This document shows positions 4,726 through 60,930 of a DNA stretch of 64,000 bases, one piece after another (within the stretch, counting starts at the first letter, position 1; each line of letters begins with the position of its first letter). The notes beneath the pieces are model-generated. The model was not told the DNA's origin. It saw nothing but the letters and a program-made list of their open reading frames with translations, and did no database searches. The DNA lies in the NCBI GenBank assembly GCA_963849615.1, contig CAWKIC010000056.1, positions 6,074 through 70,073 on the forward strand, written 5' to 3'. Source of the stretch: an uncultured Bacteroidales bacterium. Lineage in GTDB: Bacteria > Bacteroidota > Bacteroidia > Bacteroidales > VadinHA17. The translations under genes were made by a program, and so were the position numbers.

Positions 4726-4998
4726 CTTAAGGAATAGGACAGCTTATGAATCAAATTGTATACAACTGATTTGCAATAATTTACATTGGGGTTGTTGAAA
4801 AAGTCAAAATCCCTTAACCGCAGAGGGCGCAAAGGGAAGACGCAAAGTTCGCAAAGAGCTGAATTTATGTGTTTTAGCTTTGCGTTCTTTGCGACATCTT
4901 TGCGTTCTTTGCGGTTAAAAAGGACTTTTTAAACAGCCCCAACTTATTTAATTGTATCTCAGCTAAATATAATTCTCAGTCTTAAACTGATTCTTAAG
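4726..4998. repeat. composite hairpin repeat, CGCAAAG-word subfamily with CTTAAGGAATAGG...leader
   Basis: The core at 4788-4940 has termini GGGGTTGTTGAAAAAGTC and GACTTTTTAAACAGCCCC. The arms hold CGCAGAG/CGCAAAG x4 (4819-4856) and CTTTGCG x4 (4878-4913). The outer leader 4726-4787 is about 80 percent identical to 38837-38899. Confidence 0.75.
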
Positions 4999-21818: not shown

Positions 21819-21977
21819 CGCCAAGCAGACCGAACCAGGGAAAAAAATGATCTGTTTGTTGTCAGCTGTGATAAAGTTGCTGATTTTAAGCATTGGATTG
21901 ATAAATGATAGTGTGGTAATAATTAATTTTTTTACATTTGTCCGTTCCGGTACTATACGGATAAAGTGGAAAAACCT

Positions 21978-22100
21978 GAAACCCATTAACCGCAAAGTTC
22001 GCTAAAATTGAAAACCTGAGAACGCAAAGAAATGCAAATCAACATTATAACTTTGCGACCTTTGCGAAAACTTTGCGTGCTTTGCGGTTAAAAAGGACGC
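21978..22100. repeat. hairpin repeat, CGCAAAG-word subfamily
   Basis: The left terminus is AAACCCATTAACCGCAAAGTTCGC. The right arm has CTTTGCG x4 at 22051/22060/22071/22080, the same 9/11/9 spacing as 4878-4913, and ends GCGGTTAAAAAGGAC. Confidence 0.75.
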
Positions 22101-34736: not shown

Positions 34737-34999
34737 GACCCTTCTTCAAATTTCTTGAAGCTTCCGTGGTTTATTTATTAAAACAGGTAACGTTTACACA
34801 TGTAGTAAAAGTAATAATAATTTGCTTTTATCTGGTTTCATACACGGCATGCTTCATTGCATAAATTATTTTTTGGTTCCTGATGGAACTGTCAGGGTGA
34901 TGCCGGATTTTACTGGTTCTCCGAAATCCGTCAGGGATTGTGTATTCAAAATAAAACGCAGTTATGATATAAATTTCATAACTGCTTTATATTCAGAGT

Positions 35000-35073
35000 G
35001 GAGATTAGGGGAATCGAACCCCTGACCTTGTGACTGCCAGTCACACGCTCTAGCCAACTGAGCTAAACCCCCG
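35000..35073 (-). tRNA. tRNA-Ala (anticodon GGC)
   Basis: I folded the cloverleaf by hand. The acceptor is GGGGGTT/AATCTCC with the G3:U70 alanine identity pair. The anticodon loop is CTGGCAG and the T-loop is TTCGATT. It is 74 nt with no encoded CCA. Confidence 0.9.
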
Positions 35074-35094
35074 AAATTAAGTAATATCTAAGTG

Positions 35095-35144
35095 TCACAC
35101 GCTCTTGCTTCCTGGTACCTATACGGATAAGCTAACCCCCGAAT
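35095..35144 (-). pseudogene. degenerate copy of the tRNA-Ala 5' half
   Basis: GTCACACGCTCT (35095-35106) and AGCTAACCCCCGAA (35131-35144) repeat 35041-35052 and 35062-35076 of the tRNA gene. The D-arm is replaced by an unrelated 24-nt segment. Confidence 0.4.
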
Positions 35145-38735: not shown

Positions 38736-38775
38736 CTCTCCCGATACCAAACTGTTTCAAAGCATTCCCCTCTTG

Positions 38776-39045
38776 GTTTACCCCTAAATCCCCTAAAGGG
38801 GACTTATAAGAACCCCCTTTAGAGTATACTCGTCAACTTAAGGAATAGGAAAACTTATGAATCTAATTGTATGCAGTTGATTTTCTGTAACTTAAATATG
38901 GGGCTATTGAAAAAGTCCTTTGTGAACCTTGGTGATAACCCCTGCCTGCCGGCAGGCAGGTTTGAGTACCTTTGTGGTAAAGTAATTTATTGAACCACAA
39001 AGGATCACAAAGTATAACACTAAGGAACACAAAGGGAAAAAGTCT
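38776..39045. repeat. composite repeat cluster: G/C mini-hairpin module, CTTAAGGAATAGG leader, CACAAAGG-word hairpin
   Basis: 38776-38815 is GTTTACCCCTAAATCCCCTAAAGGGGACTTATAAGAACC. 38837-38899 is a leader homologous to 4726-4787. 38900-39045 is colinear with the reverse complement of 51030-51163, apart from a 20-nt insert. Confidence 0.8.
38941..38960. repeat. 20-bp perfect palindrome CCTGCCTGCCGGCAGGCAGG (inserted copy)
   Basis: It is self-complementary over all 20 nt. An identical copy lies at 60835-60854. It is absent from the homologous position of the 51.1-kb element, whose junction is at 51122/51123. Confidence 0.85.
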
Positions 39046-39089
39046 AAAAAATCTTGTGTTTCAAAACGGGGTGGTTTGAGGAACAGGAA

Positions 39090-42784: not shown

Positions 42785-42960
42785 GATTGCGGATTGCGGA
42801 TTTTGATTTTGAACATAAATATTTTTTACCACAAAGGTTCTCAAAGGTATTCACAAAAGGTCACAAAGGTTTTCACAAAGGTTCACAAAGGTTTCCACAA
42901 AGGTTCACCAAGGTATTCACAAAGGTTTTCACGAAGTAACACAAAGTAAAACATAGAAAT
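42785..42960. repeat. CACAAAGG-word array (11 direct units) forming the left flank of the GxxExxY gene
   Basis: GATTGCG x2 and GATTTT x2 lie at 42785-42812. Between 42828 and 42946 there are 11 units of [CT]CAC[AC]AAGG spaced 9-13 nt apart (mean about 11). Confidence 0.85.
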
Positions 42961-43332
42961 ATGAATATTGAAAAGATTTTTAAAACACTATTGGATTGCT
43001 CTTTTAGAGTCCACTCTGCGCTAGGTCCAGGATTGCTTGAGAGTGTATATGTTGAATGTTTGTTTTATGAACTTTTAAAGGCAGACCTAAAAGTTGAAAA
43101 ACAGAAACCCCTGCCGCTAGTTTATAGGGAAGTAAAGCTTGAAGCAGGCTATAGGATCGACTTGTTGGTGGAGAGTAGTGTAGTTGTGGAGATTAAGTCA
43201 ATTGAAGCCTTAGCGGATATTCACCTGGCTCAAATACTAACTTATCTGAAATTGTCGGGGTGCAAGTTAGGTCTATTGGCAAATTTTAATGTTGAACATC
43301 TGAAGGATGGTATCCGAAGAGTCGTCTTGTGA
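42961..43332 (+). CDS. GxxExxY protein (PD-(D/E)XK nuclease-like superfamily)
   Basis: 123 aa. It carries the signature GLLESVY, then ...YRIDLLVESSVVVEIKS..., which is D/E-x-K-like core spacing. The size and C-terminal ...GIRRVVL are typical of the family. Confidence 0.85.
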   Translation: MNIEKIFKTLLDCSFRVHSALGPGLLESVYVECLFYELLKADLKVEKQKPLPLVYREVKLEAGYRIDLLVESSVVVEIKSIEALADIHLAQILTYLKLSGCKLGLLANFNVEHLKDGIRRVVL

Positions 43333-43495
43333 TCCTTAGTGTACCTTTGTGAAGTCCTTTGTGGCCCTTAGTGGTAAAAAGAGTAAGCATCCGGGGAAAT
43401 AATTACTAAGTATTTAACCACAAAGGACACAATGGATTCTCTTTGGATCACAAAGTAATTATGGTGTCCGAAGAGTCGTCCTTTACCCTGCGAGG
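43333..43495. repeat. CACAAAGG-word hairpin on the right flank of the GxxExxY gene, followed by a duplicate of the gene's 3' end
   Basis: A hairpin runs from about 43327 to 43457 (CTTGTGATCC...GGATCACAAAG). ATGGTGTCCGAAGAGTCGTC at 43461-43480 repeats 43307-43326 with 19/20 identity. Confidence 0.8.
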
Positions 43496-49840: not shown

Positions 49841-49946
49841 CCACAGAGGTAGCACAGAGGTCCACAGGGACCGTTCAAGATTGGTCGATCAGAAAAACTT
49901 TTGACCCGCAGATCACGCAGATTTACGCAGATCACTATGGCAGATA
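49841..49946. repeat. word-array repeat, CACAGAGG units followed by CGCAGAT units
   Basis: CCACAGAGGTAGCACAGAGGTCCACAGGG lies at 49841-49869. CCCGCAGATCACGCAGATTTACGCAGATCAC lies at 49905-49935. The unit spacing is about 10-11 nt. Confidence 0.7.
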
Positions 49947-50962: not shown

Positions 50963-51029
50963 ATCAATCAATTTATATTAGTTTTTAATCAGGTTCCCAG
51001 AAAAACCAGAATCCATTTACCCTGCCTGC

Positions 51030-51163
51030 AGGGGCTGTGGAAAAAGATGGATTTTTGGCTTTTGTTATCCTTTGTGATCCTTTGTGGTTCAATAAATTTA
51101 CTTTTTACCACAAAGTACTCAAAGGTTATCACTAAGGTTCACAAAGTCCTTTTTCAACAGCCC
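51030..51163. repeat. CACAAAGG-word hairpin repeat, complete copy with both termini (empty site for the 20-bp palindrome)
   Basis: The termini are GGGGCTGTGGAAAAAG (51030) and CTTTTTCAACAGCCCC (51163). The arms are CCTTTGTG x2 and CACAAAG / CTCAAAGG / CACTAAGG / CACAAAG. Confidence 0.85.
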
Positions 51164-51265
51164 CATATGCAAAGTCAGAAGAGGTTTAAAATCCCTGCAC
51201 ACAAAGAGAAAGACAAACAATATAACTTTGCATCCTGTGTGCTGCCATACAACGTTTCAAACCTC

Positions 51266-53587: not shown

Positions 53588-54020
53588 GGAAATCCACCCC
53601 TAAATCCCCCAGGGGGGACTTTCAATGCTTCACTAAGAATCCAGGCAACCTGGAAAGTTGCAGGTTTTGCTCCAAGCCCCCCTTGGGGGGTTTGGGGGTA
53701 AGCCCTTATAAAGGACTTTTTCCCTTTGTGTTCCTTTGTGTTCCTTTGTGTTTTACTTTGTGATCCTTTGCGGTATTGATTTAAAATTAACCACTAAGGT
53801 ACACAAAGGGTTTCACTAAGAATTCACAAAGGACTTTTTTAGCAGCCCCTTCTTCCGGAAATCCACCCCTAAATCCCCCAGGGGGGGACTTTCAAGAATC
53901 CTCTCACCACCGTTTACCCCTAAATCCCCCAGGGGGACTTTTAAGAACCGATTTTAGCGAGGCAAATTTCTTTGCGAACTTGGGTTTTAATTCTTAGCGA
54001 ACTTTGCGGTTAATGGATTT
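53588..54020. repeat. repeat cluster: three G/C mini-hairpin modules, one GGGG-loop module, one CACAAAGG hairpin, one CGCAAAG half-element
   Basis: 53588-53626, 53857-53901 and 53911-53948 carry ...CCCCTAAATCCCCCAGGGGGGACTTT.... 53672-53705 is AGCCCCCCTTGGGGGGTTTGGGGGTAAGCCC. 53708-53848 is a CCTTTGTG x4 / CACAAAGG hairpin ending CAGCCCC. 53955-54020 ends GCGAACTTTGCGGTTAATGGATTT. Confidence 0.8.
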
Positions 54021-55315: not shown

Positions 55316-55445
55316 ATCCATTAACCGCAAAGTTCGCGAAGGGGTACGCAACAGATCGCAAAGAGCTAATTATTAACGTCTTGACGTTTTAACTTTGCGT
55401 TCTTTACGCCTCCAAAGCGTGCTTAGCGGTTAAAAAGTCTTAACC
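55316..55445. repeat. hairpin repeat, CGCAAAG-word subfamily
   Basis: It starts immediately after the PLD stop with ATCCATTAACCGCAAAGTTCGC. The right arm has CTTTGCG/CTTTACG/CAAAGCG/CTTAGCG at 55393/55402/55413/55422 (9/11/9 spacing) and ends GCGGTTAAAAAGTC. Confidence 0.75.
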
Positions 55446-60764: not shown

Positions 60765-60930
60765 CTCCCTGCGCGGTAACTCCGTGCGGCTTTCGGGAGG
60801 AAATGAGTTTCCGGTTTCCCGCAGATCACGCAGACCTGCCTGCCGGCAGGCAGGTTTGCGCAGATTAACCCCCATCAATGGCACTGTCATTGCGAGGAAG
60901 CATACATCGTAGGTCGACAAAGCAATCACC
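60765..60930. repeat. composite repeat: CGCAGAT words interrupted by the 20-bp palindrome, plus CATTGCGAGG...AAAGCAATC module
   Basis: TTTCCCGCAGATCACGCAGA is followed by CCTGCCTGCCGGCAGGCAGG (60835-60854) and then TTTGCGCAGATTAACCCCC. A CCTCCC...GGGAGG hairpin lies at 60765-60800. Confidence 0.75.

Follow-up and report, generated by a model that had tools for sequence, protein, structure and literature searches.

The small dispersed repeats (SDRs) of Nostoc and other cyanobacteria, reportedly described by Elhai and colleagues in 2008, are mobile units of 21-27 nt. Here we describe a 20-bp perfect palindrome, CCTGCCTGCCGGCAGGCAGG (hereafter the 20-mer), that occurs twice in a 64,000-nucleotide stretch of DNA from an uncultured Bacteroidales bacterium (contig CAWKIC010000056.1; hereafter the window). 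In behavior, SDRs are the closest counterpart known to us of what is seen in the window. Like the 20-mer, they are nested at a fixed place in larger host repeats, occur as filled and empty sites, and include different families at one position. We know of no enzyme that mobilizes SDRs. To our knowledge they are found in one group only, with no reported identity across phyla, association with tRNA copies or link to a nuclease.

Rickettsia palindromic elements (RPEs), reportedly described by Ogata and colleagues in 2000, are said to be selfish DNA inserted in frame in conserved protein genes. The 20-mer resembles RPEs in being palindromic, in being found in frame and in adding a surface peptide, which in its case is LPAGRQ (in GatB, RfbB, bS6 and an FtsK-like open reading frame (ORF)). 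RPEs, however, are ~100-150 bp long and restricted to Rickettsia, whereas the 20-mer is not a multiple of three in length and is mostly intergenic.

Fungal mitochondrial GC clusters and PstI palindromes are likewise short, GC-rich and mobile (PMC7218506). They share with the 20-mer a setting of GC-rich palindromes in AT-richer spacers, nesting in one another, and occurrence in genomes with many GIY-YIG and LAGLIDADG homing endonuclease genes (PMC7218506). They differ in that they belong to organelles and have sequences specific to a lineage, and in that several classes make short target duplications.

Repetitive extragenic palindromes (REPs) were linked to REP-associated tyrosine transposases (RAYTs) by the argument that the palindrome lies beside the enzyme gene (PMC2817692, PMC3116915). 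REPs, their paired forms (REPINs) and the 20-mer have in common that they are short, non-autonomous, extragenic palindromes beside the gene of a presumed mover and do not duplicate their target. REPs are imperfect palindromes of 20-40 nt with a conserved GTAG or CGTC at one end, whereas the 20-mer is perfect and has no conserved flanking tetranucleotide. REPs also form inverted doublets at hundreds per genome and are lineage-specific and vertically inherited; the 20-mer occurs as singlets (two in 64 kb) and is identical across phyla. Finally, the RAYT is an HUH Y1 transposase, whereas the gene linked to the 20-mer encodes a GIY-YIG nuclease.

Other known systems were compared as well. Miniature inverted-repeat transposable elements carry flanking target-site duplications, and none is present at the two window sites or at nine tRNA loci whose empty state is known. 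The 20-mer consists of two abutted 10-bp inverted halves, and no insertion sequence with such ends was seen among the clustered ORFs near copies. Elements of the IS200/IS605 type also lack a target duplication but insert 3' of a fixed 4-5 nt target; the 20-mer shows a weak preference for A at positions -1 and -3, and C follows 16 of the 18 copies of one asymmetric variant, CCTGCCTaCCGGCAGGCAGG. Such elements also insert into folded single strands, a context that for the 20-mer is hinted at by its tRNA sites only. Free-standing or intron-encoded genes for GIY-YIG homing endonucleases (I-TevI, Seg proteins) resemble the genes found beside the 20-mer in their catalytic domain, their conserved RNA-gene targets and the repeats of the target gene that flank them. 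The proteins in this study are ~80 amino acids long and have no DNA-binding domain, however, and a fixed palindrome in the duplicated target has not been described for homing.

Identity across phyla, the tRNA-duplicate context and the linkage to GIY-YIG genes are thus new features of the 20-mer. Concept searches of the literature returned only the REP/RAYT and fungal mitochondrial work. The 20-mer, two companion palindromes (TCCGCCAGCTGGCGGA and TCCCGATAGCTATCGGGA) and the peptide LPAGRQ were not found in the searchable literature, which is itself incomplete, so that an earlier description is possible.

A 20-bp unit in filled and empty sites

We identified exactly two copies of the 20-mer in the window by exact search (Table 1) and no third match even at up to three mismatches. 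The chance expectation in the window is 0 (none in 100 shuffles). The two copies are identical although their host repeats are unrelated, and they lie 22 kb apart. For each, the window also holds an empty paralogue; the two states differ by exactly 20 bp and the target is not duplicated. Only one 20-base frame, when removed, yields the empty sequence, so the boundaries of the element are unambiguous and a target-site duplication is absent.

The initial annotation read copy 1 as the filled version of a repeat whose 51.1-kb copy is empty, and our comparison agrees. Positions 38896-38940 pair with 51124-51168 at 91% identity, and 38984-39019 with 51063-51098 at 97% (reverse complement). The 51.1-kb element is unbroken between GATAACC and TTTGAG (CAAA then GGTTATC on the + strand); its empty junction, first placed at 51122/51123, lies one base further on. 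Beside this element lies CCCTGCCTGCAGGGG, first placed at 51018-51032 and now repositioned (Table 1), which could be a copy of the 20-mer that has decayed or lost internal bases.

We aligned five homologous copies of the copy-1 host, of which the window supplied three and metagenome relatives the other two (L122 and L131; sampled loci are given by L number throughout). Three of the five are empty (the 51.1-kb and 53.7-kb elements and L122), which indicates that the empty state is ancestral. The 38.9-kb copy carries the 20-mer, and L131 carries a different, 16-nt palindrome, CCCGATAGTTATCGGG, ~4 nt from the 20-mer position. This host site thus accepts more than one kind of mini-palindrome.

A second pair came to light in the follow-up. 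Copy 2 is found in the arrangement CCCGCAGATCACGCAGA, 20-mer, TTTGCGCAGAT (60818-60865), and its empty counterpart joins CCCGCAGATCACGCAGA directly to TTTaCGCAGAT (49905-49932). The pair has 27 of 28 flank bases identical and a gap of exactly 20 bp. Because the two copies are 100% identical, and the host repeats share only 91-97% identity with their paralogues, the insertions in the window are younger than their hosts.

The 20-mer is therefore a discrete unit that is gained and lost precisely, without target duplication, and that nests in other repeats and in itself. The suggestion that it is a nested mini-element, made from the filled and empty pair at copy 1, now has behind it empty paralogues of both window copies, at least nine further loci with tRNA copies, self-nesting in three genomes, and the different palindrome near the same spot of the host element in L131.

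Identical copies across phyla and their insertion contexts

Far beyond the two places in the window, species-representative genomes (one genome per species, 596 Gb) contain the exact 20-mer in at least 120 stretches, and viral contigs in 35 more. By arithmetic, ~0.5 occurrences are expected in 596 Gb at uniform base composition, and ~15 if all genomes were 70% G+C. Grouped at phylum level by record titles, the carriers belong to about nine groups and include cultured isolates and a complete chromosome. They include many Patescibacteria lineages; Bacteroidota, among them four cultured isolates and a complete chromosome; Omnitrophota; Planctomycetota and the wider Planctomycetes-Verrucomicrobia-Chlamydiae (PVC) group; uncultured Gammaproteobacteria; delta-proteobacterial groups and Bdellovibrionales; Thermodesulfovibrio-type Nitrospirota; and Chloroflexi. 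The sequence is identical across these phyla and in phages, and its flanks are unrelated from genome to genome. An assembly or adapter artefact is thus not credible.

At many sites the surrounding sequence derives from a tRNA, in most cases as a partial copy beside an intact gene, and there the 20-mer mostly occupies loops or stem-loop junctions. Nine loci differ from an intact tRNA copy in cis by exactly 20 bp with no duplication (L037, L106, L118, L297, L311, L318, L320, L326 and L328). L320 (1626-1750) contains a full-length duplicate of tRNA-Leu(gag) beside the intact tRNA-Leu(gag), and L294 and L296 are alike, downstream of the ORF; these duplicates are broken twice by the palindrome, in the D-loop and again at the T-stem/T-loop junction. 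In the viral contigs L225 (2239-2330) and L202 (8616), a tRNA-Met has the 20-mer in its variable loop. ARAGORN still calls the L225 gene as a 92-nt tRNA with a long variable arm, and the tRNA might still function.

About 10% of sites are inside short tandem arrays, mostly of heptamers, whose phase is restored once the 20-mer is removed. Three genomes show self-nesting (L018, L042 and L021) at the symmetry-equivalent positions between bases 9 and 10 or 11 and 12. A minority of copies, all in other genomes, are in frame in conserved proteins, mostly as LPAGRQ; the hosts GatB, RfbB and bS6 were confirmed against solved structures, and the FtsK-like ORF was recognized by its motifs. In an IS91-like gene the reading frame is displaced by two, as expected of a plain 20-nt insertion. 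At L077 the 20-mer substitutes for 19 nt of the target and is not added to it. Length variants also occur, namely a 24-nt form in L324 (407-430), CCTGCCTGCCTGCCGGCAGGCAGG, and the self-nested 40-nt forms of L018 and L042. Slippage of the CCTG/CAGG tetramers may add to this variability.

We found no fixed target motif. The flanks show a weak preference for A (position -1 in 104 of 250, position -3 in 93 of 250). TTTG, proposed in the initial annotation as a 3' target, adjoins the palindrome at just 4 of the 165 unique sites, and the two window sites are among these 4. A target-site duplication of ~7 bp was rejected as well: flanking direct repeats occur at 17 of 161 sites (~10%) against a background of ~4, and any point in a heptamer tandem array produces such a peak. 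A 21-nt unit (the 20-mer plus G or C) was rejected for the perfect form, as left G or right C is present at 44% of sites and ~39% are expected; it does apply to CCTGCCTaCCGGCAGGCAGG, with its following C. In minimum free energy folds of 163 reconstructed empty sites, loop and junction states were no more frequent at the insertion point than at shifted positions, so that hairpin loops as a general target find no support and only the tRNA contexts point to them.

Among viral variants the perfect form is the commonest (39 unique sites), followed by the one-mismatch form CCTGCCTaCCGGCAGGCAGG (14 sites), which is found at four further sites in genome loci. The compensated symmetric double variant was seen once. 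The recurrence of CCTGCCTaCCGGCAGGCAGG next to a single compensated form indicates that copies are templated from copies, and that sequence rather than pairing is conserved.

Two more GC-rich perfect palindromes, TCCGCCAGCTGGCGGA and TCCCGATAGCTATCGGGA, recur across phyla beside or near the 20-mer and behave similarly, so the 20-mer seems to be one of a set. These companions were seen in L011, L015, L016, L032, L040, L108 and L110, and in L052, L062, L070, L128, L134, L135, L138 and L148, at positions that include the tips or interiors of local repeats. The window itself contains a partial tRNA-Ala copy (Table 1) whose D-loop is broken by a decayed 18-nt palindrome, TCCGTATAGGTACCAGGA (35110-35127), which is another mini-palindrome family with behavior like that of the 20-mer. 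Orthologous fragments contain TCCCGATAGCTATCGGGA (L134, L135 and L138) or nested forms of it (L128 and L148), and L124 instead has the 20-mer, 5 nt upstream of the TCCCGATAGCTATCGGGA position. The fragment is kept in relatives whose Asd protein is 85-91% identical to that of the window, and the palindrome inside it varies.

A linked GIY-YIG family and the competing explanations

Clustering of 9409 ORFs from 1.2 Mb of sampled loci near copies gave one small enriched family, GIY-YIG nucleases (Pfam accession PF01541) of ~80 amino acids; enrichment was seen for no other protein family. NCBIfam has no model for this subfamily, whose members score under the intron-endonuclease cut-off. In loci fetched via the palindrome, 8 of 10 GIY-YIG ORFs adjoin the 20-mer. 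These loci run from a partial tRNA copy, broken by the palindrome, through the nuclease ORF to an intact tRNA of the same sequence.

Because these loci had been selected through the palindrome, we drew a blind sample. A profile built on six of the proteins matched at least 7257 relatives, from which ten were chosen by profile similarity alone and looked up by protein sequence. All ten have the palindrome in a duplicate of the neighboring tRNA (Leu, Asn or Arg), at most about 100 nt from the gene. Six of these copies are exact and four are decayed, and the ten represent at least six distinct gene neighborhoods. The 20-mer is thus physically linked to one GIY-YIG subfamily at tRNA loci. Since the palindrome flanks its gene, this family is a candidate partner by the reasoning once applied to REPs and RAYTs (PMC2817692, PMC3116915). 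A profile scan of viral contigs for the family returned only the two loci previously found.

Further arrangements were seen in individual GIY-YIG loci. In L326, an ORF of the four-helix-bundle family 23S_rRNA_IVP lies directly upstream of the GIY-YIG/tRNA-Asn unit. In L232 (~830-960), the intact tRNA copy 3' of a viral GIY-YIG ORF seems to be broken after the CT of the anticodon loop by what looks like a group I intron.

We favor, with a probability of roughly 55%, the explanation that the 20-mer is a non-autonomous mini-element with this GIY-YIG family as its trans-acting partner. It would enter and leave DNA as an exact 20-bp unit without duplicating its target, and would have landed recently in two unrelated short-period repeat elements of the present genome. 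The palindrome would be the cognate binding or cleavage site of the nuclease, comparable to REP sequences and RAYT genes. The nuclease would mobilize it, and scattered solo copies, such as the two in the window, would be by-products of nuclease activity. Spread between phyla could occur on phages and nuclease cassettes. As a working guess at the chemistry, insertion would begin with a cut made at the extruded hairpin or next to it, and copy-repair or ligation would follow.

Several points weigh against a GIY-YIG partner. These enzymes are hydrolytic nucleases, and we know of none that moves a short DNA segment. Because insertion sites share only the weak A signal, a site-specific nuclease fails to explain the choice of target. 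In-frame copies need the net change in length to be divisible by three, which a strict 20-bp unit does not provide, so junctions must sometimes be imprecise. The observed copy number is low, with one copy in most 8-kb stretches sampled. L074 has a decayed GIY-YIG ORF and a tRNA duplicate with no palindrome, and a GIY-YIG ORF of the same family in L093 lies inside a 23S rRNA gene, also with no palindrome. (The L093 ORF, 4758-5042 on the - strand, is an intervening sequence in the 23S rRNA, in the helix-25 region by our assignment.) Neither the 64-kb window nor 481 kb from relatives contains a GIY-YIG ORF, and for this genome the partner is thus only a putative one. Other palindrome families also hit tRNA copies, and a hot target in which insertions are tolerated could produce the linkage by itself.

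That last possibility leads to the main rival, which we consider improbable, if the least so of the alternatives. The 20-mer would be mobile by means of some other enzyme and would build up in dead tRNA fragments made by GIY-YIG cassettes, as a favored target in which it does no harm. Palindromes of the TCCCGATAGCTATCGGGA family indeed occupy the tRNA-Ala fragment of the window and five relatives with no adjacent nuclease ORF, and the 20-mer is found in tRNA-like sequences with no nearby GIY-YIG ORF (L015, L030, L085, L099 and L225). The preponderance of loops and stem-loop junctions in tRNA contexts also fits structure-directed insertion into folded single strands. However, more than one copy per stretch is rare, which makes 10/10 occupancy of a ~40-nt target hard to obtain by chance. 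No transposase family, HUH or other, was enriched in the 1.2 Mb of sampled loci.

A second alternative, which we regard as unlikely, is that the palindrome is a repair scar made at nuclease double-strand breaks by adding the same 10-nt sequence to both ends and then joining them. This would account for the perfect two-fold symmetry and the structure (CCTG)2-CCGG-(CAGG)2, for the additional CCTG in L324, for the substitution at L077, for the adjoining nuclease genes, and for varied sites with no strong motif. Against this, at least 11 sites of known empty state are base-precise. With one template an asymmetric variant should be rare, yet CCTGCCTaCCGGCAGGCAGG occupies 14 viral and four genomic sites and the symmetric double variant only one. 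We know of no bacterial enzyme that adds a fixed 10-mer to DNA ends.

Slightly less likely still is a functional hairpin (a nuclease operator, an RNA 5' stabilizer or a terminator) that is under selection and moved passively by recombination. The 20-mer has a GC-rich 8-bp stem and a 4-nt loop, it lies just 5' of the GIY-YIG ORF in most sampled GIY-YIG loci, and copy 1 is located between convergent genes; I-TevI represses its own gene at an operator. An intrinsic terminator was rejected, however, as only 18 of 165 sites show a T-run, compared with 30 among control positions. Also against a functional hairpin, copy 2 lies between divergent genes, and copies are found within coding sequence and within repeats. 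Selection on pairing finds no support in covariation of the stem, the compensated form being seen once against 14 sites of the uncompensated one. Nor does passive recombination explain clean 20-bp insertions into unrelated flanks.

The absence of any insertion (deletion in the empty copies, chance matches, or an assembly or library artefact) can practically be set aside: palindromes are prone to deletion and the carriers are mostly metagenome-assembled genomes, but most members of the host family are empty, so that the 51.1-kb copy is not a decayed deletion, no chance copy is expected in the window, the 20-mer is present in isolates, a complete chromosome and contigs whose names suggest long-read assembly, its contexts are biologically coherent throughout, the literature searches did not return it, and it matches no adapter known to us.

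Taken together with its GIY-YIG partner, the mini-element favored here could tentatively represent a new mobile system, with a bare 20-bp cargo driven by a hydrolytic nuclease, anchored at universally conserved tRNA sequences and seeding repeats and essential genes. If so, it would rank with the smallest mobile DNA units and with the few that are identical across many bacterial phyla and their viruses. It would also provide a candidate enzyme for a class of elements whose mobility is unexplained (SDRs, RPEs and organellar GC clusters). Broken tRNA copies by genes annotated 'GIY-YIG nuclease family protein', and LPAGRQ inserts in conserved proteins of uncultured lineages, would be accounted for, and the 20-mer could serve as a tag for recent DNA traffic between very distant bacteria. 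In practical terms, the palindrome can disrupt gene and tRNA calls in metagenome-assembled genomes.

Host repeats and surroundings in the window

The coordinates of the features discussed above are collected in Table 1. An Rfam scan of the window gave gathering scores for two tRNAs alone, and the 20-mer matches no curated RNA model.

Table 1. Palindrome copies, host repeats, empty paralogues and related features of the 64-kb window.
Feature	Position	Strand	Remarks
Palindrome copy 1 (filled site)	38941-38960	n/a	Exact match; missing from three homologous host elements
Palindrome copy 2 (filled site)	60835-60854	n/a	Exact match
Empty paralogue of copy-1 host	51055-51170	-	Unbroken junction between 51123 and 51124
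Second empty paralogue, copy-1 host family	53706-53856	-	Repeat comparison and multiple alignment
Empty paralogue of copy-2 host (CCCGCAGATCACGCAGA joined to TTTACGCAGAT)	49905-49932	+	Junction between 49921 and 49922
Host of copy 1, long imperfect hairpin repeat of ~155 bp	38896-39050	+	Repeat comparison, alignment
Host of copy 2, short CGCAGA array with a period of 9-10 nt	60818-60865	+	In divergent intergenic region
CCCTGCCTGCAGGGG	51020-51034	n/a	Adjoins the 51.1-kb element; has CCTGCCTGC in common with the 20-mer
Partial 5' copy of tRNA-Ala	35093-35140	-	Upstream of the real tRNA-Ala(ggc) at 34998-35072

The genes that converge on copy 1 are HflX-like and Asd (named by Pfam). The host repeat begins with GGGGCTnTTGAAAAAGTCC, continues with CTTTGTG units every 10-12 nt, a loop and CACAAAG units, and ends in GGnAAAAAGTC. 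Folding of the repeat as single-stranded DNA gives -32.3 kcal/mol (z = -6.6), and the palindrome forms a separate side hairpin.

This host is a member of an intergenic family of long-hairpin repeats with the termini GGGGCTnTTGAAAAAGTCC and GGACTTTTTnnnCAGCCCC. Members are located at 4780-4945, 21975-22098, 38896-39050, 42826-42946, 43334-43460, 51055-51170, 53706-53856, 53960-54015 and 55320-55440. Their arms repeat a heptamer, either CTTTGTG/CACAAAG or CTTTGCG/CGCAAAG, at intervals of 10-12 nt. Hairpin repeats of relatives are built from other heptamers, such as CTCTGTG (L132 and L147).

An ORF with a GxxExxY/PDDEXK_3 nuclease fold (TIGR04256, PF13366) lies at 42961-43332 on the + strand, with a CACAAAG array on one side and inverted CTTTGTG units on the other, and looks like the loop cargo of one hairpin repeat. 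The same placement is found in L122, L129, L135, L149 and L165. This ORF was considered as a partner of the 20-mer and rejected, as its homologues at other loci are not close to the palindrome.

The spacer between HflX and Asd (3' of Asd in L121-L179, orthologous to window positions 38736-39089) is hypervariable between close relatives. It contains a shifting set of small hairpin elements, such as CCCCCCAAATGGGGGG types, types running from CCCCTAAATCCCC to GGGG, and heptamer hairpins, and is a hot spot of small insertions. None of the metagenome loci orthologous at Asd contains an ortholog of the same host element, and the proteins of the window's flanking genes have no exact match on record that would represent a strain variant.

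A further small repeat, CCACCCCTAAATCCCCCAGGGGGGAC, is present at 38772-38801, 53588-53617, 53857-53886 and 53908-53937. Two of its copies are identical and 269 bp apart, one on either side of the 53.7-kb hairpin element.

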